From an uncultured Eubacteriales bacterium (GTDB lineage: Bacteria; Bacillota; Clostridia; TANB77; CAG-508), in NCBI GenBank assembly GCA_949288185.1, contig CASEIZ010000024.1, forward strand, positions 74,303-138,302: a DNA stretch of 64,000 nucleotides, read 5' to 3'. Below are positions 1,023-48,606 of this stretch, in pieces (position 1 is the stretch's first letter; each line of letters starts with the position of its first letter). The translations under genes were made by a program, and so were the position numbers. The notes under the pieces were generated by a model. It saw only the letters and a program-made list of their open reading frames with translations, did no database searches and was not told where the DNA came from.

Positions 1023-1709
1023 ATGATTAAAGCATTAATAGTAGATGATAATTTACAATATATAAAGAATATACTAAATACAACAATAAATAAATTTTCT
1101 GAAATACATATAGAATATATTGCAACGACTGCAAAAGAAGCAATAAACGTTATATCAAATAATCAAATAGATTTAATATTTCTTGACTTAAATCTTCCAG
1201 ATGAAAATGGAATATATATAATTGACAAAATAAAATATTTGAATACTATAAAAAATCCATATATTGTTATAATTTCAGAAGATAGAAAGCTCATTGAAAT
1301 AATAAATGAAAGACAGATTTCATTTGATGTTATTAGTAAATTTGAAAGTAATAATATAATTTATAATAGAATTAAAAAAATTATTCACGAAATAAAATTT
1401 AGTACAAATGAGAAAGAAATAAAGGAATTCGTTGTTTCTGAAATGTCTAACATGGGATATAACTGGAAATACAAAGGAACATTATATATGCTTGAAACAA
1501 TTTTATATATTTATCAAAATAATAATATGGATTTATTAGATAATTTAGAAAAAAATGTATATAAGTATATATCTTATCGAAATGGAAAAAAGATTAATAG
1601 TATAAAGACTAATATTATAAAAGCAACTAGTGCAATAAAGAACGGAGATAATTTAACACCTAAATTTGTTGTGTCAAATATTTTAACTAGAATAATTAGT
1701 AATTATTAA
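1023..1709 (+). CDS. orphan response regulator with Spo0A C-terminal-like DNA-binding domain
   Basis: Receiver motifs IVDDN and FLDLNLPDENG. C-terminal part aligns by eye with the Spo0A effector domain (YKGTLYMLETILY / NSIKTNIIKAT / LTPKFVVSNILTRI versus Spo0A IKGYLYLREAI / ASRVERAIRHAI / PTNSEFIAMVADKL). Confidence 0.6.
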   Translation: MIKALIVDDNLQYIKNILNTTINKFSEIHIEYIATTAKEAINVISNNQIDLIFLDLNLPDENGIYIIDKIKYLNTIKNPYIVIISEDRKLIEIINERQISFDVISKFESNNIIYNRIKKIIHEIKFSTNEKEIKEFVVSEMSNMGYNWKYKGTLYMLETILYIYQNNNMDLLDNLEKNVYKYISYRNGKKINSIKTNIIKATSAIKNGDNLTPKFVVSNILTRIISNY

Positions 1710-2856: not shown

Positions 2857-2886
2857 GTTGGATAAAAAAATAACTTGTAACCCCAT

Positions 2887-2927
2887 ATATAATCAATAAA
2901 AAAAATATTTATTGATTATATTTTTTT
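2887..2927 (+). terminator. rho-independent terminator after XRE gene
   Basis: Perfect 14-bp stem ATATAATCAATAAA / TTTATTGATTATAT, 7-nt loop, then a T7 run. Confidence 0.7.
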
Positions 2928-2970
2928 AGGCTCAAAAAGGAATTATAATATAGATGTATTCAAAAAAAGT

Positions 2971-3203
2971 AACTATTTATAAGGTCAATCTATAAATAGT
3001 TATTCTACCTAGAAAAACTAGGTTATAGCTAATAAAATTAGCATGACTTGCGTTTTAAGCAAGTATAATTGGTAAAGCGACACCAATACAAAATAACAGT
3101 CCTTGTATTAGTGTGCTTAAAATTAAGAAATAAGAAGGCAAGAAGTATAAATGAGAAAAAGAATCCCCTAATAATTTCATTTATATACTTGACTTCTTTT
3201 TTT
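2971..3203 (+). ncRNA. candidate structured RNA or origin-like region (six short hairpins plus long terminator hairpin)
   Basis: No ORF of 60 aa or more on either strand in 2857-3288. Hairpins: AACTATTTATA/TATAAATAGTT, ACCTAG/CTAGGT, GCTAAT/ATTAGC, ACTTGC/GCAAGT, ATTGGT/ACCAAT, ATACAA/TTGTAT, then 3133-3197 long imperfect hairpin followed by T7. Confidence 0.3.
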
Positions 3204-3537: not shown

Positions 3538-4464
3538 ATGAATAATATGAAGCTACCATTTAAAAAGGAAGAATTCCTAGGAAATGTTAGGTCAGGAAAT
3601 AAAAGAGAAAATAATTCACCTAGAAATTTAAGTTATTTTGATGTTCATTTGGATAATTATACATCTGAATATTCAGTTGCATTATTTAATAGTGTTACCA
3701 AAGAAAATCCATCACAATTAGAAATAATGCCAATTGACAATATAATTGTTACAAATGAGATTTATACAAAGAGTTTTAAATGTAAAGGTTATCTTGGAAA
3801 AGCAACAAGAATTACTGGAAATGGAGGAAAACAAGAATGTGCTTGTAATGAAGAAAATTGTAAGTATTTTAAGGAAGGTAAATGTGTGAAAGTAGGAAGA
3901 ATCTATTTTAGGCTTAAAGGAGCTTTAGATAAAGGGATTTGGTGTTATTCAACAAAAAGTAGGGGAATTAAGTATATTGAAAATTATTTGAATTTAATGA
4001 TTGAAAAAGGCATAGATATAACAAAAAGCTATTTTTTATTACAACTTAATGCTAAAACTGGTAAATCTGGAAAAGTATATGTGCCAGATATAAAACTAAT
4101 AAGTTCAAATGAAAATGTAACACCTAAAAATACACAAAGTCCACCACAAAATCCATTACAAAATCAAAATAATAAAAATCAAAATTCAAACAAAAAATTA
4201 TTTCAATATATTGGTGGTAAAATGATAGAATATCAAAATCAAAGAATACCACAATTAATTCTTCAAAATCCTCAAAAAGAAAAGACAATCGTACACATGA
4301 ATCAAGCATCTAAAAAAGATTTATTAAAGTTAAATAAGGGAACAGTAATTGAAATAACAAAATTAAGTAAAGATAAGAATAATACAATATTTTTAACAGA
4401 TTACAATGTTTTAAGAGCTGTACCTAGAAAAGAAAATAAAGAAGAAAATAAAAAAGCAGTCTAA
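3538..4464 (+). CDS. hypothetical phage-like protein with Cys cluster and Q/N-rich linker
   Basis: 308-aa ORF. CKGYLGKATRITGNGGKQECACNEENCKYFKEGKC cysteine cluster. Low-complexity QNPLQNQNNKNQNSN. 3' end lies inside a hairpin AGCAGTCTAA...TTAGAACTGCT plus T-run. Confidence 0.65.
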   Translation: MNNMKLPFKKEEFLGNVRSGNKRENNSPRNLSYFDVHLDNYTSEYSVALFNSVTKENPSQLEIMPIDNIIVTNEIYTKSFKCKGYLGKATRITGNGGKQECACNEENCKYFKEGKCVKVGRIYFRLKGALDKGIWCYSTKSRGIKYIENYLNLMIEKGIDITKSYFLLQLNAKTGKSGKVYVPDIKLISSNENVTPKNTQSPPQNPLQNQNNKNQNSNKKLFQYIGGKMIEYQNQRIPQLILQNPQKEKTIVHMNQASKKDLLKLNKGTVIEITKLSKDKNNTIFLTDYNVLRAVPRKENKEENKKAV

Positions 4465-5857: not shown

Positions 5858-7537
5858 ATGATAATAAAATCAATAGATGATACAAGAGGATATAAAGGAT
5901 TACCTGATGGAACAAGGGTTAATTTTGATGAAAATATTACATATATAATAGGAGATAATTATAAAACTAAATCTACTATTCTTTCTGTTCCACTTTGGGT
6001 TATAACAGGATATAGTTTAAATGAAGGTAACCAAGAAGATGTGTCAGATGATAATAGACCAAATTTAAGAAATGTAACAGCTCAAATAACAATAATTGAT
6101 AATGAAGGAGAAGAACATAGTATCTTTAGAAGTAAAGGAAAATCTAACTATGTTTTACTAGATGGCGTAAAGACATCAAGAGAAGCCCTATCAAAATTTT
6201 ATAAAGATATTCAATTTTTTCTATGTGCATATAATCCATATAGATTTAGAAGCATGGAAAAAGACAAACAAAAAGAATTATTATTAAGATTACTTCCAAA
6301 CATAGAAAAAGAAGAAGTATTTAGTTGCTTGACAGAGGAAGAACAAAATATATTAGGAGAACCAATACTAGATGCAAAAGAATACAATAAGGAAAAAAGA
6401 GTTAAAATAAAAGAAATTGAATTTGAAATAAAAAGAAATGAAGGCATAAAAGAAAGTAATCTGTTAACAGCTTTAAAAGTAGAAAGAAAGGAAAAGACAT
6501 TTGATAAGCAAATGGAACTTCTTGATTTAGAAGCTCAATATGAAAATCTTTTAAAAGGTGGAATTGGAGCATTTAACCTAGAAGATATAAAAAATAAAAT
6601 AAACTTACTTGAAAGAAAACTATCTAAAATATTAAAAGAAGATTTAGTAAATGCAAAAGAGAAAAAGAAAAAAATAGAAGATAAAATCAATAATGTATCT
6701 TCGGTTAATAGTGAATGTCCAGTCTGCAAACAAAAGATAGTAAACGAGGCTTTAAGGAAAGCATTAGAAAGGCAATATAATAAAGAGTTAGAAACACTAG
6801 AAAATTCAATTGAGAATTTAAAACAAGAAGCAAAAAATTATTTAACAGAAATGAATTCCAAAAAAGCATTATTTAATAAGCTAAATACAAGTGAAAATAA
6901 AGAAAAATTAGAAAATATAAATACTCTTAAAGAACAAATAGATAGCCTAAAAGAAGAAAAGCTCGAAATTGAACTATATAATCAAAAAGCAGAAACGGAA
7001 AATGAAGAAATTAGAAACGCTAAATCGCAAATAGAAAAGGTAGAAGATGCTATAAAAAAATTAACAGATACCAAAGAATTATATGAAAAGCAAATAGAAG
7101 TTGCTAACAAATTTAGAAAGCTAAAAATAGAAAAGCAAGTAAAAATGATTCAAAATCTACTAGATAAAGTTACAATAGAGTTTTATAAGGTAGATACTTC
7201 TACTGGAGAAATCATAGATGATAATAAATATACAGTAAAATATAATGGCAGAGAATATGAAAAATTATCACATTCACAAAAAATGAGAGCTGATTTTGAA
7301 ATTTCTAATTTAATAAATGAACTTGCTAATATTCATACACCAATGTTCATAGATGATGCAGAATCTATAAGAGATGTTAATATAAAAACAAACAATCAAA
7401 TAGTAGTTGCAATTTTTATAAAATATAGTGAATTAAAGGTTTTATATAACTACCACAATGTATTAGAAGCTAAAAAAGCATCTGTTGACGAACAATTAAG
7501 AGAAGATAGAAATATAAATATGTTAAATGCAGCTTAA
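5858..7537 (+). CDS. Rad50/SbcC-like coiled-coil ATPase with central CxxC zinc hook
   Basis: N-terminal P-loop-like GDNYKTKST, about 350 aa of K/E-rich coiled coil with CPVCKQK at its midpoint, and a C-terminal Walker B-like MFIDDAESI. Confidence 0.65.
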   Translation: MIIKSIDDTRGYKGLPDGTRVNFDENITYIIGDNYKTKSTILSVPLWVITGYSLNEGNQEDVSDDNRPNLRNVTAQITIIDNEGEEHSIFRSKGKSNYVLLDGVKTSREALSKFYKDIQFFLCAYNPYRFRSMEKDKQKELLLRLLPNIEKEEVFSCLTEEEQNILGEPILDAKEYNKEKRVKIKEIEFEIKRNEGIKESNLLTALKVERKEKTFDKQMELLDLEAQYENLLKGGIGAFNLEDIKNKINLLERKLSKILKEDLVNAKEKKKKIEDKINNVSSVNSECPVCKQKIVNEALRKALERQYNKELETLENSIENLKQEAKNYLTEMNSKKALFNKLNTSENKEKLENINTLKEQIDSLKEEKLEIELYNQKAETENEEIRNAKSQIEKVEDAIKKLTDTKELYEKQIEVANKFRKLKIEKQVKMIQNLLDKVTIEFYKVDTSTGEIIDDNKYTVKYNGREYEKLSHSQKMRADFEISNLINELANIHTPMFIDDAESIRDVNIKTNNQIVVAIFIKYSELKVLYNYHNVLEAKKASVDEQLREDRNINMLNAA

Positions 7538-40812: not shown

Positions 40813-41352
40813 ATGGAATCTTTATATGGATTAACATACATACCAGTAGATATGGATAATTTAGAAATAGCATTTAAAATACAAAAAGAAATATGGACAT
40901 CTGATCCAGATTATAACGATTTACTAGATAAAGCTAAAAATAGAGCTGATAATAATTGTTCTTTTTTAATTTATTATGACAATACTTTAATTGGAATAAC
41001 TGGAGTTGACTTTTACAAAGAATATAACGATACGATATGGCTTGACTGGTTTGCAATTTTGCCAGAATTTCGTAGAAAAGGTTATGGTAAGAAAGTATTA
41101 TTAGATACAATTAGATATTGTAAAAATTTAAAAAAATATGATTATTTTAGACTAGATACCACATATTATGAAAATAGACCAGCATTATATTTGTATGATG
41201 ATGTAATGGATTTAAGAGAAGATTATACAGTTGAAGATACAGATACAGTAAAAAACAATTTTATTATATATACATATGGCTTAAATAAAAAAGCTGAATA
41301 CTGGAATAATAAATATTTAGGATTAAGAGAATATTATGATAATTGTAAATAA
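40813..41352 (+). CDS. GNAT family N-acetyltransferase
   Basis: Motif A FRRKGYGKKVL. Confidence 0.8.
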   Translation: MESLYGLTYIPVDMDNLEIAFKIQKEIWTSDPDYNDLLDKAKNRADNNCSFLIYYDNTLIGITGVDFYKEYNDTIWLDWFAILPEFRRKGYGKKVLLDTIRYCKNLKKYDYFRLDTTYYENRPALYLYDDVMDLREDYTVEDTDTVKNNFIIYTYGLNKKAEYWNNKYLGLREYYDNCK

Positions 41353-41375
41353 TAGAAATGGGAGAAATATAAATT

Positions 41376-42080
41376 ATGGAAGATAAGAAAGTAGTAGTAG
41401 GAATAGTTGCAAAACATATAAATAATAATCAATCTAAAATTAATTCTTTAATTCGTGATGAAGTAAAACAAGCAATATTTGATAATGGAGGAATTGTAAT
41501 TGGAATATTATCACCAAATGATGAAATATTATATGCAGGAAACGATTGGAAAGAATATGAAGATAAAATAAGAAAAGAAGAAATAATAGATGAGTTAAAT
41601 TTGTTTGATGGTGTTATTTTGCAAGGTGGGATAACTTGCGAAGCATATGAAAGTTGGATTGCAAAATATTGCTATGATAATAACATTCCTATACTTGGGA
41701 TTTGTGCTGGACAAAATGCAATAGCAAGAAGTCTTGGAGGAACAACTTTTAAAATCAGTAATCCAGAAAAACATGATAAAAGTTTTGATGAATATGTGCA
41801 TAGTATAAAGATTGATAAAGAATCAAAATTTTATTCAATTATTCAAAAAGAAGAAATAATGGTAAATTCAAGACATAAAAATTCAATTAAAGATTGTCCT
41901 GGATTAAATAAAGTAGCATTTTGTGAAGATGGATATGCAGATGTTATTGAAGATCCCAACAAAAATTTCTATATTGGTGTAAGATTTCATCCAGAAAGCT
42001 TGTATAAGAAAGATGAAAATATGAATAATATTTTTAAAGCTTTTCTTGAAGAATGTAAAAAACAAAGTAGGGGTAATTAA
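41376..42080 (+). CDS. class I glutamine amidotransferase-like / gamma-glutamyl hydrolase (peptidase C26) family protein
   Basis: LGICAGQN nucleophile elbow and VRFHPE His-Glu block. Confidence 0.8.
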   Translation: MEDKKVVVGIVAKHINNNQSKINSLIRDEVKQAIFDNGGIVIGILSPNDEILYAGNDWKEYEDKIRKEEIIDELNLFDGVILQGGITCEAYESWIAKYCYDNNIPILGICAGQNAIARSLGGTTFKISNPEKHDKSFDEYVHSIKIDKESKFYSIIQKEEIMVNSRHKNSIKDCPGLNKVAFCEDGYADVIEDPNKNFYIGVRFHPESLYKKDENMNNIFKAFLEECKKQSRGN

Positions 42081-42143
42081 AAAATTTTTTCTCAACTATG
42101 AACTAATATAAAAATGTATTAAACTTATGATGAGGTGAAGAAT

Positions 42144-42479
42144 ATGGATAAATCATATGTAAATACATTAAAAAATATATTAGGAGAAAAAAAGTTTAAA
42201 GAGCTATCAGACTTACTTTTTAAAGATGTAGATAAAATGTTTAGAGAAATAAAAATTGACATAGCAATAAAAATGGTAGAAGTAAATATGTCACTTATTT
42301 CAATAATTGGCGTGGAACTAGCAAGGGGATGCAAAGAAGAAGAATTATCAAAAAGAATTAATTGGTATAACATTGCAGGAAAATCTATGTTTATAGAAGA
42401 AAATATTAATGAATTTTATAAAAGATATAAAGAATATATCGAAATAGTTAAATTAAAAGTTATAGAAGAAAATAAATAA
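42144..42479 (+). CDS. hypothetical protein, paralog family member 1
   Basis: ATG after GAGGTG. NTLKNILGEKKFKELSDLL ... FYKRYKEYIEIV shared with 42601. Confidence 0.6.
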   Translation: MDKSYVNTLKNILGEKKFKELSDLLFKDVDKMFREIKIDIAIKMVEVNMSLISIIGVELARGCKEEELSKRINWYNIAGKSMFIEENINEFYKRYKEYIEIVKLKVIEENK

Positions 42480-42600
42480 AAAATTAATGCACTTTTCTAG
42501 CAATAGATTAGTGTGTTTTTTTATGGGTACATTTTTTATTTTTTTCTCAAATAGGTATTTTAAGCTCTTGGAAATATAATCACCTTCAGGAGGTGGAAAA

Positions 42601-42948
42601 ATGTATGTAAATTCTAGGACTACTAATAAAATTCTAAAAGAAATATTAGGAAAAGAATTATTTAAAGAATTGCTAGATTATCATGTAGAAATTGCAGACA
42701 GATATTTAGGTACAAATCATTCAGCAATTTTAGGAATATGCTATTCCTATTTTAATAATATGGTTATTTTATATATTTCTGCATTTTTATCAAAAGGTAA
42801 GACTTTAAAAGAAATTGAAACATCATTTAAAGAAAATTATAAAAATAGAATTATGCAAAACTCTATTGAAGATTTTTATTTTGATTATAAAAAATATATT
42901 GAGCAAGTTGTAAATAATTTAAAAAAGAGAAATGGGGAAGGTACATGA
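42601..42948 (+). CDS. hypothetical protein, paralog family member 2
   Basis: AGGAGGTGG RBS. NKILKEILGKELFKELLDY ... FYFDYKKYIEQV. Confidence 0.65.
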   Translation: MYVNSRTTNKILKEILGKELFKELLDYHVEIADRYLGTNHSAILGICYSYFNNMVILYISAFLSKGKTLKEIETSFKENYKNRIMQNSIEDFYFDYKKYIEQVVNNLKKRNGEGT

Positions 42949-43271
42949 ATTTTAAAAAAATGCAAGGCATCATTCAAATTATATTAAGTGAATATGATTA
43001 TCAAAAATTATTAACATTGATAGTTCAAGAATATGCAAAAACCGAAGTAATGATTAGTGAATTAGAAACAATCTTATTTTCATATTTTAATTTAATTTTT
43101 ATAAAAGGAATTTCAGATAAGAAAATAGAAGCAAAAGAATTAAAGATTTTAACAGAAAAAAGAACTATTAAAGTTAATTTAGAAAAGTTTGATGTAAGGT
43201 ATAGTGAATTTATTTTAAAAATAAAAAATTTAAAAGAGGAAGTTTTTGAAGAAATCAGAAAAAATATATAA
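42945..43271 (+). CDS. hypothetical protein, distant member 3 of the same family
   Basis: ATGA overlap with the previous gene. Similar size and helical pattern (IQIILSEYDYQKLLTLI). Confidence 0.55.
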   Translation: MNFKKMQGIIQIILSEYDYQKLLTLIVQEYAKTEVMISELETILFSYFNLIFIKGISDKKIEAKELKILTEKRTIKVNLEKFDVRYSEFILKIKNLKEEVFEEIRKNI

Positions 43272-43321
43272 CCATATGAATATTCTATATGTCATATATA
43301 GAATATTTTTAAGACAATTTC

Positions 43322-43356
43322 AAAATTCCACATAACTACACTTATGTTGAATTTTT
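43322..43356. promoter_or_regulatory. dif-like recombination site (near-perfect palindrome, 6-bp centre)
   Basis: AAAATTCCACATAA CTACAC TTATGTTGAATTTT. Core ATTCCACATAA-CTACAC-TTATGTTGAAT compared with E. coli dif GGTGCGCATAA-TGTATA-TTATGTTAAAT. Confidence 0.5.
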
Positions 43357-43383
43357 GAAATAAAAACTAAAAATATCTATAAT

Positions 43384-43433
43384 AAAATTCTACATAAATG
43401 AAAGAAAATTAGATAAAAAAATTCTACATAAAT
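43384..43433 (+). repeat. two perfect 17-nt direct repeats carrying the same half-site
   Basis: AAAATTCTACATAAATG at 43384-43400 and 43417-43433 (33-nt period). The second overlaps the recombinase RBS. Confidence 0.8.
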
Positions 43434-43445
43434 GGAGGAATAAAA

Positions 43446-44330
43446 TTGGAAGATGATATATTAGAAAAATTTGAAATTTATTTAGATGAAAAATATACAA
43501 GTGACGAAGAACGAAATACACAAAAAGCATATTTAAGTGATATAAGATTATTTTTAAAATATTTTGAAGATGAGTTTGGAGAAAAAATAGTATCCTTTTC
43601 AAGAGGACATATATTAGAATACAAAAATTATATGCTAAATAAAATGAATTATAAATTTTCGACTATTAATAGAAAATTGGCATCAATTTCTGTATATGAA
43701 GATTTTTTAATAGAAAATAATATAAAAGAATCAAAAGATATAAAAAAGAGAGATTCCTATAAAATTGATTTGGCATATATTTCTGCTGATATGCTTCCAA
43801 GAAAAACTATTAAAAAACTAAGATTAGAAGCTAGTAAATGGAATAAAAGAGATTATGCAATAATTGTTTTAATTGATGAAGCTGGATTAAGAGTTTCAGA
43901 AGCAATAAGAATTCAATTAGAGCGAGATGTTAATTTAGACATGAGAAGAATTACTATTTTTGGAAAAGGAAGAAAAGTAAGAGAGGCATTTATAAATAAT
44001 GAAATTTATGAGGCTTTAGATGATTATATAAAAGAAAGAAATGAAATTTTGAAAGAATTAAACACAACTAACAAATACTTATTTATTAGTAATAAATCTA
44101 AAAAGACTGGAAATCATATTCATAGAAGTACAGTAAATAAGATGCTAAATAAATATATTGAGCAATTAAATGAAAAGAAATTACATCCACATACTTTAAG
44201 GCATGACTTTGCGACAACAAGATATGAAGAAGGGTATAGTGATATGAGATTAAAGAAATCATTAGGTCAAACATCTAATGCAGTAAACAGATATGTCCAT
44301 CCAGGAGGAGAAGAAAATAGAAACAATTGA
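43446..44330 (+). CDS. Xer-like tyrosine recombinase/integrase
   Basis: AGLRVSE (Arg I), GKGRK (Lys), HPHTLRHDF (HxxR), NRYVH (Tyr). 294 aa. TTG start after GGAGGA. Confidence 0.85.
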   Translation: MEDDILEKFEIYLDEKYTSDEERNTQKAYLSDIRLFLKYFEDEFGEKIVSFSRGHILEYKNYMLNKMNYKFSTINRKLASISVYEDFLIENNIKESKDIKKRDSYKIDLAYISADMLPRKTIKKLRLEASKWNKRDYAIIVLIDEAGLRVSEAIRIQLERDVNLDMRRITIFGKGRKVREAFINNEIYEALDDYIKERNEILKELNTTNKYLFISNKSKKTGNHIHRSTVNKMLNKYIEQLNEKKLHPHTLRHDFATTRYEEGYSDMRLKKSLGQTSNAVNRYVHPGGEENRNN

Positions 44331-44454
44331 TAATAGAAATAGCATAAATGTAGGAATTTAGGCAAGAAGATTTGGAATACTTGAATTTTATACTGAATTA
44401 TGGTAAACTATCATTAGTGAGCAAATAGCTCAAAATTTAAATTTCAGGAGGAAA

Positions 44455-45060
44455 ATGGACATGATTAAAGTGGATGTAAACGAAATAACAGTAACAGTTA
44501 AAGGACGGGAAGTAACTTTATCTGAAAAAGAGCTGGTTAGTATTTTGGAACAACATTTCAAAATACTAAATGTAGTAAAAGGTGTTGAAGTAAATCCTAT
44601 TACTATTGATGAATCAATATTTGAAATAGGGGAAAAAGAGCATTATTATTCTCATGAGGAATATATAATGCAACTGATTCAAAAAGCATTTATAGAGATG
44701 AAGAAAGACCTACGAAGGTATGCAAGACCATTTGAAATTGTGACTCCAGCAGAATTAGAACCAGTATATACTGAAGAAAAGATAGTGGCACTGGCAGAAC
44801 AATATGGAGATCACCTTGCAGATTGGGTTGAACAAGCACTAGAGTGGGCACAAAAAATTGCTAATGGTGAAGATATCTTCAATAAATCAGATGATTCAAA
44901 ATGGTTTAGAGCGATTTCATGGCAGGACGGTCATGTGTGTCTTGTTGGTGGTTCGGAGGAATTTAATAATCATGATTGTGCTTCAGCTATTCATGAATTT
45001 CATGTTAATTCTTTTTATCAGCTACATAATGCAGTTCCAGCTATCGTGCGTTACAAGTAA
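44455..45060 (+). CDS. hypothetical protein
   Basis: AGGAGGA RBS. 201 aa. Noticeably more G+C than neighbours. Confidence 0.6.
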   Translation: MDMIKVDVNEITVTVKGREVTLSEKELVSILEQHFKILNVVKGVEVNPITIDESIFEIGEKEHYYSHEEYIMQLIQKAFIEMKKDLRRYARPFEIVTPAELEPVYTEEKIVALAEQYGDHLADWVEQALEWAQKIANGEDIFNKSDDSKWFRAISWQDGHVCLVGGSEEFNNHDCASAIHEFHVNSFYQLHNAVPAIVRYK

Positions 45061-45229
45061 AAATCCACTATTCAACATAATAATTGTTGAATAAAATCAA
45101 ATATAGAGGATGAAACTTTAATAAGAAGCATCCTCTATATATTTAAATGAAAATAAAATTAATATTTGATTTATGTTAGATAAAGTGCTATAATATGCTT
45201 ACTATAAACATTTTAGGAGGTTTTTGCAT

Positions 45230-45571
45230 ATGAACATTACAAGGGACGAGGTTTTTTATGATCGGCAATTAGAATTGGCAAACAAACTTGCGGATGTATT
45301 GGGTGACAAAATCAAAGAAATAAAAACAACTGAATATTTATACCCATGGGAAGGACCATTTGATAAAAAGTTGTCATATTCTGAAGTACGTCAAGCAAAC
45401 AGAAAGAAGCGTATTAATGTCACAATTGTATTTGACAGATACATTTCAAAAGAGGCAATACCAGAGCTTAATAAAATCATGAAATGTAATTATCGGATTT
45501 ACAAAAATGAACTTTGGTATTCAATGAAACCAGCAAAACTTGACTGGTATATGCGAACCGAAAAAGCGTAA
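45230..45571 (+). CDS. hypothetical protein
   Basis: ATG 10 nt after GGAGG. 113 aa. Strong terminator AAGAGGAGAA...TTCTCCTCTT follows. Confidence 0.6.
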   Translation: MNITRDEVFYDRQLELANKLADVLGDKIKEIKTTEYLYPWEGPFDKKLSYSEVRQANRKKRINVTIVFDRYISKEAIPELNKIMKCNYRIYKNELWYSMKPAKLDWYMRTEKA

Positions 45572-45736
45572 TTCGTAAGAGGAGAATATAGCTGAATTAT
45601 GAAAGCTATTTTTCTCCTCTTAACTCATTTTTAGAAAATAGCTATAAACGTTAAATATAAAAATAAAAATAGAACCATCCTTCTTTTTACAGAAAGATGA
45701 TTCCACTTTTTAAACTCAATCAATAACGACGTCACC

Positions 45737-46306
45737 TTAAAAATTCGCTGTTCCTATAACTTTAAACTTGTAATTCGCTTTATCCGTTATAATATTTCCT
45801 TCTATATCATCCATTTCAAAAGAAATAGGGATGATTTTAGTTACACTAAAACCTTTCCTACTTTTAAATTTTCCAGAAATGAGATATCTATATTCAGAAA
45901 GATTCTCTCTTCTTATAAGATGTCTATATTCAGAAATTTTAGAAATCTCATTTTTTCTTTTAAGTTCCTGCAAATGCTTGTGAAAAGAAGGAAAATCAGA
46001 AAATGATTGAATAAACATATTTCCTCTATATTCTGAAGCATAACCAAAATAGAAAGGAAGATCATATTCTTGATTTTTCAAATCCAAATGATTATCTTCT
46101 GCTTCAACAGTAAGAGAATAACCATCAAGAGTTGTAAAAGTATTTTCTTGTAGCAATCCTTCAATAAGCATTAATTCTGAATGAATAAAATTGAATAATA
46201 TTTTTATAGGACATCCAGTTTTTGAAATAGATTGAGCTTCATCAAGAGTTATTTCCACTCCTGAATCTTGGCTAAAAAACCGTGCTTTGTAAATTTTCTC
46301 CTGCAT
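45737..46306 (-). CDS. hypothetical protein
   Basis: 189-aa minus-strand ORF. No motif. Confidence 0.55.
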   Translation of the reverse strand: MQEKIYKARFFSQDSGVEITLDEAQSISKTGCPIKILFNFIHSELMLIEGLLQENTFTTLDGYSLTVEAEDNHLDLKNQEYDLPFYFGYASEYRGNMFIQSFSDFPSFHKHLQELKRKNEISKISEYRHLIRRENLSEYRYLISGKFKSRKGFSVTKIIPISFEMDDIEGNIITDKANYKFKVIGTANF

Positions 46307-46708
46307 ACTTTTCTACCTGTGAGAATTCTAAAATTCTCTCCTTTCTTTTTAGAATTTCATATATTGTATCATAAAATACTTGATAAATCAAAGAATAGTG
46401 GGAACTAACTATATTCTATTGAAAAATAGTCAATTGAAAAATCGGTATAGCTCTTAACCATACCGATTTTAACATAGTATCAATGCTTTGACACATATAA
46501 CCGAACAGTTGAAACATGATATCCATTGTCAAATGCAATTGATGTGAAACTGTCCTTATAGAAATCATCTGCTGTCTGTGGGCTTTCAATGATTTCAAAT
46601 GCTTTCACTATTGGAACATCTCTTTCCCTAATTTGTGCCAGAACTTCGCCAACACTAGGTTTGAAAATACCATAATATCCATATGTATGTAAGCATACAA
46701 AATCATGA

Positions 46709-46888
46709 ATAGAAATTAACAAATTAGAAAAATATATTCCAGAATGGGAACAAGAATTTAAAGATGCCCCTTTAGAAGTAAAAAGAATAATTTTAAATGA
46801 AATGGTTGATAAAATTGTATTGTTTAATGATAAAGTAGAAGTTTGTATAAGATATCCAATCTCAAATTTAATTGTAAAGGAAATTTGA
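46709..46888 (+). pseudogene. 3'-terminal remnant of a second large serine recombinase
   Basis: Reads IEINKLEKYIPEWEQEFKDAPLEVKRIILNEMVDKIVLFNDKVEVCIRYPISNLIVKEI*. It is homologous to the tail of the intact neighbour (IPNWKEEFENADVEMKKMLLTEFIKEIRIYNDKIEIDFLFEI). A stop codon lies immediately upstream at 46706. Confidence 0.7.
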
Positions 46889-46890
46889 AA

Positions 46891-48606
46891 ATGGAACATA
46901 AAAGAATAGGATGTTTGTATAGGGTTTCGACTTTAAAACAAGCTGAAAAGAATGATATACCTATGCAAAAAACAGCTTGTAAAGAATTTATAAAAAAGAA
47001 AAGAGATTGGAAATTTGAAAAAGAATATATAGAATTAGGAGTATCTGGTTATAAATTAAAAGAGTCAGAAAGAGATGTTTTACAAGACATAAAAAAAGAT
47101 GTAACAAACAAAAAAATTGATGTTTTATTAGTATTTATGTTTGATAGAATAGGTAGAAGAGAAGAGGAAACACCTTTTGTTGTTCAATGGCTAATAAATC
47201 AAGGAATAGAAGTATGGTCAGTAAAAGAGGGACAAAGAAAAATTGAAACAAGAGCAGATAAATTAATTAATTACCTAACATACTGGCAAGCTGGTGGTGA
47301 AAGTGAAAAAACAGCAATAAGAGTTAGAGAAGCACAAGAACAAATGGCAGAAAAAGGCATATTAACCTATGGTGGAAAAAGAAATGCACCTTATGGATAT
47401 GAATTTATAAAAAGTGGTACATATACTAAAAAAGGTGTAGAAAGACAAAAATTAGTGATTGTAGAAAAAGAAGCTGATGTTATAAGAAAAATCTTTGAAT
47501 TATATACTGTATATGGTTATGGTGTTGGAAGAATAGCAAAATATCTAAATAATAAGAAGATTAAACCTAAAAGAGGAAAACTATGGGGAATTTCGACTAT
47601 ATCATCAATTTTAAGCAATCCTATCTATATGGGTTATCCAGCATATAACAGAAGAACTACAAAAAATGCTCATACAAAAAGAAAATTACCTTTTGAAGAT
47701 TGGATTTTACCAAAGGAAAGAATAGATGAGTTAGTTATTATTTCAGAAGAAGTATGGTATAAAACAAAGAAAATAAAAGATAGCAGAAATAGATATGTAA
47801 AAAATGATGATGATATAATAATAAACAAACCATTTCAAACAAAGTCAGATTTATTATTTATAGGCTTATTAAAATGTGGTGAATGTGGATATTCATTTAT
47901 GACATCAGAAAGTAAGAAAAGAAAAAGAAATGGTGAAGAAGTAAAATATATGTATTATAGATGCAGTAGTGCTAGATTCACTAATTCATGTAATTTGAAT
48001 AAAAAATCTATTAGTAAAGAAAAATTAGAAAAACCTATTTTAGATACTATCTTTGATTTCTTAAATAATATAGAAAAGATGGATTTAAGTGATGAAATAA
48101 GAAATAATATGCAGAGCAATCAGCAAAAAGAAAAAAACGAGTTAAGGAAATGCGAAGAAGAAATAGTTGAAATAGAAAATAATATAAATACTCTTAAACA
48201 AGAAGTTGTTAAATCATTAAGTGGCAAAAGCAATTTTACACCTGAATTATTAAATGAATTATTGGAAGAAAAAAATAATGAATTAAAACAAGTTCAATTA
48301 AGAAAAAGTGATTTAGAAACAATTTTAATAAGAAAAGATATTGAACAAAAAGATATTCTAAAAGTTAAGAATATGATTCCAAATTGGAAGGAAGAATTTG
48401 AAAATGCTGATGTTGAAATGAAAAAAATGTTACTAACTGAATTTATAAAAGAAATTAGAATCTATAATGATAAAATAGAAATAGATTTCTTGTTTGAAAT
48501 AAATAATTATATAAAAACTAATGTGACTTTAAATGAAAATAATGAAATAGATAATAAGAATTTAAAAATTATTGAAAATACTATATATGTAAAAAGAGAT
48601 AAGTAA
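46891..48606 (+). CDS. large serine recombinase (integrase)
   Basis: IGCLYRVSTLKQ catalytic Ser block, resolvase and recombinase domains, zinc ribbon CGECGYSF...YYRCSS, long coiled coil. ATG 46891 is 2 nt after the remnant stop. Confidence 0.9.
   Translation: MEHKRIGCLYRVSTLKQAEKNDIPMQKTACKEFIKKKRDWKFEKEYIELGVSGYKLKESERDVLQDIKKDVTNKKIDVLLVFMFDRIGRREEETPFVVQWLINQGIEVWSVKEGQRKIETRADKLINYLTYWQAGGESEKTAIRVREAQEQMAEKGILTYGGKRNAPYGYEFIKSGTYTKKGVERQKLVIVEKEADVIRKIFELYTVYGYGVGRIAKYLNNKKIKPKRGKLWGISTISSILSNPIYMGYPAYNRRTTKNAHTKRKLPFEDWILPKERIDELVIISEEVWYKTKKIKDSRNRYVKNDDDIIINKPFQTKSDLLFIGLLKCGECGYSFMTSESKKRKRNGEEVKYMYYRCSSARFTNSCNLNKKSISKEKLEKPILDTIFDFLNNIEKMDLSDEIRNNMQSNQQKEKNELRKCEEEIVEIENNINTLKQEVVKSLSGKSNFTPELLNELLEEKNNELKQVQLRKSDLETILIRKDIEQKDILKVKNMIPNWKEEFENADVEMKKMLLTEFIKEIRIYNDKIEIDFLFEINNYIKTNVTLNENNEIDNKNLKIIENTIYVKRDK

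Follow-up and report, generated by a model that had tools for sequence, protein, structure and literature searches.

In the 64-kb stretch of DNA analysed in this study (the window), a short palindromic site with two extra repeats lies directly upstream of a gene for a tyrosine recombinase (Table 1). The sequence was read directly, and positions 43322-43355 form a 14-6-14 palindrome with one mismatch between the arms (C versus A, arm position 8), as the initial annotation had stated. Two further copies of the half-site, DR1 and DR2, follow in direct orientation on the gene side. Both had been reported before, and the copy at 43384 was placed exactly, but the second one starts at 43418 instead of 43417, and the spacing between them is 34 nt rather than 33 nt, an error of one base owing to an A-run. 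The last G of DR2 is the first G of the RBS GGAGGA (43434-43439), so the earlier remark that the second half-site overlaps the RBS of the recombinase is correct, with one base shared. An exact search of the 64-kb window for the 14-nt half-site pattern AAAATTCNACATAA gives four matches, none of them outside these 112 bp. When one mismatch was allowed, just one extra site was found in the window, at 11844, and approximately 1.4 are expected by chance.

Table 1. Positions of the features at the locus, in its surroundings and in the related loci used for comparison.
Feature	Position	Strand	Details
Core left arm (IR1 equivalent), AAAATTCCACATAA	43322-43335	+	Direct read, pattern scan, alignment of loci
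Asymmetric 6-bp central region, CTACAC	43336-43341	+	Putative strand-exchange region
Core right arm (IR2 equivalent), TTATGTTGAATTTT	43342-43355		Minus-strand reading AAAATTCAACATAA
DR1, accessory direct repeat, AAAATTCTACATAAATG	43384-43400	+	+62 nt from left arm
DR2, accessory direct repeat, AAAATTCTACATAAATG	43418-43434	+	+96 nt from left arm
Predicted sigma-70-type promoter, TTGAAA-17 nt-TATAAT	43355-43383	+	11/12 consensus positions
Hairpin and T-run, putative intrinsic terminator	43278-43310	+	Fold energy -11 kcal/mol, z = -3.4
TnpI-like tyrosine recombinase gene	43446-44330	+	294 aa, TTG start at 43446; Pfam, TnpI homology
Gp3-like recombination directionality factor	3538-4464		
Large serine recombinase	46843-48606		Abuts truncated peroxiredoxin gene
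Xer-like gene	57415-58398	minus	234 bits to XerC model; among housekeeping genes
Spo0A_C regulator in relative L001	7010-7699		
Spo0A_C regulator in relative L009	9543-10229		
Site on Clostridium carboxidivorans p19 (L032)	2875-3000		DRs +61/+97; half-site ATGCAACATAA
Site on P. thermoglucosidasius pGEOTH02 (L033)	1371-1500		DRs +62/+98; half-site ATTCAACATA
Site on B. methanolicus pBM19 (L034)	1377-1505		DRs +62/+98; ATTCAACATA in its DRs

The recombinase consists of a Phage_integrase domain and an N-terminal SAM-like core-binding domain according to Pfam. Because R149, K174, H249, R252 and Y283 are invariant in the alignment of 21 family members, the protein looks catalytically competent. 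At the second active-site His position (LGHSSN), the window protein has Q instead (LGQTSN), several relatives do likewise, and the residues seen across the family are H, Q and D.

The gap between the core and DR1 is filled by a predicted promoter, which is the best consensus match within 43150-44500; its -35 hexamer abuts the right arm and its -10 hexamer abuts DR1. In the promoter scan, this promoter was strong just in the window's own clade, and none was consistent in the AT-rich DNA of distant relatives. Studies have shown that Tn5401 has promoters inside its irs and that the binding of TnpI modulates expression (PMC7157771). With a predicted promoter between core and DR1, a DR2 that touches the RBS and the precedent of Tn5401, it is likely that the recombinase regulates its own expression through its site. 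Ahead of the core lies a hairpin with a T-run, whose position is kept in 12 related loci even where the upstream gene differs, and whose sequence is conserved. Among these 12 relatives, the stem of 13 pairs shows many G-U wobble changes and three pairs with compensatory changes, and because pairing is kept in this way, a role at the RNA level is suggested. The hairpin fits a plus-strand RNA terminator that would shield the site from upstream transcription.

A protein search returned approximately 58 relatives with an identity of at least 47%, and nearly all of these come from metagenomes. The family locus was found in at least 22 species genomes, all of them MAGs that represent uncultured Clostridia of the animal or human gut; the scan of species-representative genomes is pattern-based and the count is a lower bound. 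No relative was present among viral contigs scanned with the family alignment, phage records gave weak matches alone (33% identity at most), and an exact-sequence look-up of the window recombinase matched no contig. The 18 related loci that were checked, with recombinases 48-98% identical to that of the window, all have the identical plan: an 11-6-11 palindromic core (extendable), then two direct copies of the left half-site, the RBS and the gene. The distances of DR1 (+62 nt) and DR2 (+96 nt) from the core are invariant in the window and these 18 loci. This recurrence of the same architecture and spacing is the strongest evidence that the site is not a product of chance. The half-site itself varies among the loci (ATTCC, ATAGC, ATACT or ATAAT, each followed by ACATAA), and within a locus the core arms and the two DRs vary in concert, with L012 as a partial exception, as they would if a single protein recognised all four half-sites. 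The central region has the asymmetric consensus NTACA(C/A) across the family.

The canonical site is absent from one clade (L007, L008) and from two copies that have decayed (L020, L026). In the L007/L008 clade the intergenic region is short and carries different repeats, TTTTCTCATAT and CTTTTCATATA, and the inverted TTATATGAAAGG. In L026 (about 5900-6750), the right core arm alone is retained and the gene is truncated at its N-terminus, and in L020 (978-2523) a second tyrosine recombinase lies directly upstream. Extra half-sites were sought in the window and in the flanks of all relatives, and only single matches at chance level were found. A conserved ATTCAACATAA at 45070 was considered as a further half-site and was rejected; it is part of an unrelated hairpin after a 201-aa gene.

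The layout described above is well known from the transposon Tn4430. Its IRS of 116 bp has a pair of inverted 14-bp motifs, IR1 and IR2, which form the core and are cleaved with a 6-bp stagger, and two 16-bp direct accessory motifs, DR1 and DR2, which bind extra TnpI subunits (PMC2847244). The TnpI subunits bound to DR1-DR2 impose resolution selectivity via a topologically defined synapse (PMC2847244). TnpI of Tn4430 is, among characterised proteins, nearest to the window recombinase; the two are 32% identical over 277 residues (124 bits, E 2e-38), and TnpI scores 124 bits to the window recombinase versus 73 bits to the window's Xer-like protein. In a tblastn search, B. thuringiensis genes annotated as tnpI were among the top plasmid matches (E 2e-29), along with several small-plasmid recombinases. 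We read the Tn4430 IRS on the B. thuringiensis plasmid p06, where the IR1-IR2 core is followed by DR1 at +62, DR2 at +98, the RBS and tnpI. Tn4430 and the window have in common a homologous recombinase and the same four-motif site with two direct accessory copies on the gene side; DR1 is at +62 in both, and DR2 is at +98 in Tn4430 versus +96 in the window. In both cases the site measures approximately 112-116 bp and lies directly upstream of the gene, DR2 adjoins the RBS, and a terminator-like hairpin stands ahead of the core; an equivalent hairpin with a T-run is found just ahead of the cores of Tn4430 and of the plasmid p19. The irs of Tn5401/TnBth4 (Bacillus thuringiensis, Tn3 family) is related to that of Tn4430. 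If the 6-bp stagger reported for TnpI (PMC2847244) is taken over for the window, the cleavage positions would flank the 6-bp central region.

There are also clear differences. In Tn4430, tnpA comes directly after tnpI, whereas no Tn3-family transposase follows the recombinase gene in the window; in the relatives, a Spo0A-like response regulator is the downstream gene. The carrier differs too, being a large integrative element from gut Clostridia instead of the transposon Tn4430, and the half-site of the window is dif-like (ACATAA), not the CAACACAAT of the Tn4430-type site. The window recombinase reaches 124-154 bits against members of the TnpI clade and is only 27-34% identical to them, while the TnpI clade proper shares 52-55% identity. 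On account of this low identity, the window recombinase belongs to a separate, distant subfamily relative to the TnpI clade. Its affinity to TnpI was judged from pairwise scores rather than from a tree of 14 recombinases, in which the deep branching was not resolved.

Three Firmicute plasmids of 19-20 kb (p19, pGEOTH02 and pBM19) encode TnpI homologues that are 52-55% identical to TnpI, and these have the same site layout. Their recombinases are 32-34% identical to the window protein. They are annotated merely as tyrosine-type recombinase/integrase, despite the complete IRS-type sites beside them. The three plasmids are autonomous, whereas the module of the window lies in DNA integrated in the chromosome. 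Because no Tn3 transposase is annotated beside their genes, the sequences point to a stand-alone multimer-resolution role of these plasmid recombinases. We searched the literature for TnpI-like plasmid resolution systems, and nothing directly relevant was found. The half-sites of the three plasmids resemble those of the window, and the dif-like look of the core is therefore common to these sites and not a sign of a chromosomal dif.

The window contains two kinds of DNA. Housekeeping genes occupy the part from approximately 48.8 kb onward, including a truncated peroxiredoxin, fructose-bisphosphate aldolase, SmpB, Sua5, an ECF sigma/anti-sigma pair and a class A penicillin-binding protein. The part to the left of approximately 48.8 kb is accessory DNA with an element-type backbone, which includes ERF-like, SbcC-like and primase-like proteins besides the directionality factor and the serine recombinase listed in Table 1. 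Several backbone genes recur beside the recombinase gene in relatives. Integration and excision can be assigned to the serine recombinase and the directionality factor, and because the element has both of its own, resolution is left as the natural job of the TnpI-like enzyme. Large serine recombinases were also seen approximately 5 kb downstream of the TnpI-like gene in L013 (11035-12872), L012 (6165-7181) and L027 (6228-6638), and those of L013 are in tandem, echoing the pair of a remnant and an intact copy in the window (46709-48606).

Gene content near the site varies among close relatives and metagenome contigs, with presence or absence at 41353-42067 and 42945-43271. The C26/GATase-like gene at 41353-42067 is absent from L001, L025 and metagenome run X5, and the third of the 108-aa paralogues (42945-43271) is absent from L001 and L009. 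The latter was possibly lost by unequal crossing-over between tandem paralogues. A motif AAATTTTTTCTCA was noticed at about 42084-42098 and 42545-42560, upstream of several element genes, and also in upstream regions of the distant relatives L007, L012, L013, L016, L017, L024 and L026. Perhaps it serves as a promoter or regulator site specific to the element.

The initial annotation had proposed that the core is a chromosomal dif with a dedicated single Xer recombinase, similar to XerS/difSL or XerH/difH, which would mark the replication terminus. This proposal is understandable, because the arms of the core are dif-like and the spacer between them is 6 bp, and the claimed match of its right arm at 10 of 11 positions to the XerD arm holds against the sequence of E. 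coli dif. The window also has the SAM-like N-terminal domain, the palindromic core, the 6-bp centre and the dif-like inner bases in common with Xer systems, its protein has a distant Xer-type domain layout, and the gene adjoins the site as with XerS and XerH. However, the scores of the protein against the NCBIfam Xer equivalog models, 120 bits for XerA (cut-off 220), 116 for XerC (335), 114 for XerD (330) and 99 for XerS (267), all fall far under the cut-offs, and it reached 71 bits against the window's own Xer-like protein at 57415 and no more than 54 bits against the solved Xer structures. The surroundings of the site are an accessory element with variable flanking genes rather than conserved core genome: the gene content of close relatives varies approximately 60 nt upstream, the flanks of distant relatives differ, and the family is confined in our scan to the uncultured gut Clostridia mentioned above. 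GC skew within the 64-kb window was positive in 32 of 32 bins, and the cumulative skew climbs steadily with no extremum or switch at 43.3 kb. The second XerC/D-like gene at 57415, which had been pointed out before, is indeed Xer-like, and it is the more Xer-like of the two and belongs to the core genome. To our knowledge, dif sites have no accessory direct half-sites, in which the window again differs. We consider a chromosomal dif at this position highly improbable, and the claim that the region is the terminus is not supported.

Another thought is that the site is the attachment site of an element with its integrase, or that circles are captured at the core in the manner of integrons, with the upstream gene array as cargo. 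The order of gene, DR2, DR1, core and gene array does resemble the attI side of integrons; attI (L, R, DR1, DR2) and the window both have a core with two direct motif copies towards the recombinase gene and a same-strand gene array beyond the core, and the genes upstream of the site differ among relatives. But the gene orientation relative to the site is opposite in the two systems, and the array genes of the window are packed, with gaps of mostly 2-45 nt and no attC-like repeats. Neither the 64-kb window nor the 6-kb flanks of the relatives contain a second core or a half-site cluster beyond chance, and the protein scores 49 bits against the integron integrase model TIGR02249, with a cut-off of 265. 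The integron-like form of the idea was rejected for the lack of internal sites in the array. As for attachment, every locus has a core with two intact, symmetric arms, which is not how a hybrid attL or attR junction looks. Synteny with close relatives (L025, 96.7% identity) is unbroken over 42068-46395, straight through the site, and the breakpoint for the presence or absence of the 108-aa gene is not in CTACAC but beyond the hairpin, approximately 60 nt to the left of the core. Contigs of four gut or metagenome runs were compared with 41000-47500 and pass over the site without a break; the sole joint near the core (41241 to 43358) has a side of 25 letters and is unreliable. The large serine recombinase and directionality factor are moreover available for integration and excision. 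An integrase of the lambda type with arm sites was considered too and rejected, for the DRs are identical in sequence to the core half-sites and not distinct arm sites, and the 294-aa protein has just the SAM-like core-binding and catalytic domains. Attachment or capture at this site is thus improbable. The suggestion of an attachment site made in the initial annotation found no junction to support it, but its broader idea of an element-borne site with arm-type or autoregulatory repeats comes close to the evidence; the element encodes its own recombinase and so does not exploit Xer in the way of IMEX-type elements. An invertible DNA switch of the Fim or Hin kind, which a tyrosine recombinase beside a promoter-bearing repeat region might bring to mind, has a negligible chance of being right: there is no inverted partner site in the window or in the relatives' flanks, the metagenome contigs have a single orientation, and no reads with both orientations were seen.

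It could also be that the site is mainly an operator, and that the protein chiefly represses its own operon, in relatives together with the Spo0A-like regulator, with recombination secondary or lost. The position of the promoter between core and DR1, the contact of DR2 with the RBS, the regulator gene that follows the recombinase gene in nearly all relatives and the Q at the second active-site His position would all agree with this. Against it, a family that has diverged to 48% identity keeps the nucleophile Tyr and the R, K, H and R residues without variation, and the core has remained complete and asymmetric, with exactly the geometry of TnpI; none of this would be needed for repression alone. 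Regulation and resolution coexist in Tn5401, and the operator explanation in this respect overlaps with the TnpI/IRS explanation. We regard a mainly regulatory site as unlikely.

The response regulator deserves a description of its own. It has 228-230 aa with a Spo0A_C domain (40-43 bits against the Spo0A_C model, cut-off 25) and comes directly after the recombinase gene in nearly all relatives, for example approximately 100 nt after it in L002, L004, L007 and most other loci. The recombinase and regulator genes are separated in the window's clade by an insertion of three genes with a higher G+C content (44455-46306). The window itself is without this regulator; its homology to relatives ends at 46395, just before the serine-recombinase remnant. 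A separate Spo0A-like response regulator (1023-1709) is found in the window beside a zf-HC2 anti-sigma-like protein (128-970). It is approximately 25% identical to the recombinase-linked one, and the same pair is present in L015 (1141-2515). This regulator and anti-sigma-like pair at 128-1709 may belong to the element too. A search of the literature on Spo0A-like genes on mobile elements returned nothing directly relevant. In nearly all relatives, the recombinase and regulator genes make up a single unit behind the promoter region with its four half-sites. We also considered that the module was recruited as a gatekeeper of the element-borne Spo0A-like regulator and that the window copy lost its partner gene. 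In such a case, the occupancy or recombination state of the site, reflecting the copy or multimer state of the element, would set the expression of the regulator. This is a rather unlikely proposal at present.

In this study, we believe it probable that the site and the gene form a module for multimer resolution of the TnpI/IRS type, which regulates itself, lacks a Tn3 transposase and is part of an integrated mobile element. The architecture of the site, its conservation, the co-variation of the half-sites across loci, the homology to TnpI and the intact catalytic residues were observed directly. From them we infer the binding, the cleavage positions, the resolution activity, the substrate and the autoregulation. 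Four recombinase molecules would bind the four copies of one half-site. The two inverted copies would act as the core, and strands would be exchanged across the 6-bp CTACAC, while DR1 and DR2 on the gene side would hold extra, non-catalytic subunits. As has been shown with TnpI of Tn4430, the subunits at DR1 and DR2 would impose a defined synapse, and recombination would then take place only between directly repeated sites on one molecule. The product of such selective resolution in systems of the Tn4430 type is a two-noded catenane. In this way, dimers or cointegrates of the circular form of the element could be turned into monomers. Because the predicted promoter is flanked by the core and DR1, and DR2 is in contact with the RBS, the filled site would also shut down the expression of the recombinase.

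Several observations count against the TnpI/IRS reading. Four of them were described above: the low identity to the TnpI clade, the Q at the second active-site His position, the promoter that is strong in the window's own clade alone and the loci without a canonical site. The classical substrate of TnpI, the transposition cointegrate, is missing, since there is no Tn3-family transposase; the sole ORF of more than 600 aa in the window is the penicillin-binding protein. The element, furthermore, was seen integrated only, with a single copy of the site. We assumed that multimers of an excised, replicating form of the element are the substrate, and this is the weakest step of the proposed mechanism.

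If the TnpI/IRS reading is right, the design in which a recombinase also provides the accessory subunits occurs beyond the three Bacillus transposons of the Tn3 family. The same geometry (+62, then +96 to +98) is found in Tn4430, small Firmicute plasmids and integrative elements of gut Clostridia, even at approximately 30% protein identity, which argues for a tightly constrained synaptic complex. The four half-site specificities are natural variants that can be used for the study or engineering of tyrosine recombinases. The dif interpretation would then be a false lead, and the site would say nothing on where the terminus lies. The fixed pairing with a Spo0A-like regulator in the relatives is a lead in itself, and if the module were indeed a gatekeeper, this regulator could interfere with sporulation of the host or with other decisions under Spo0A control.
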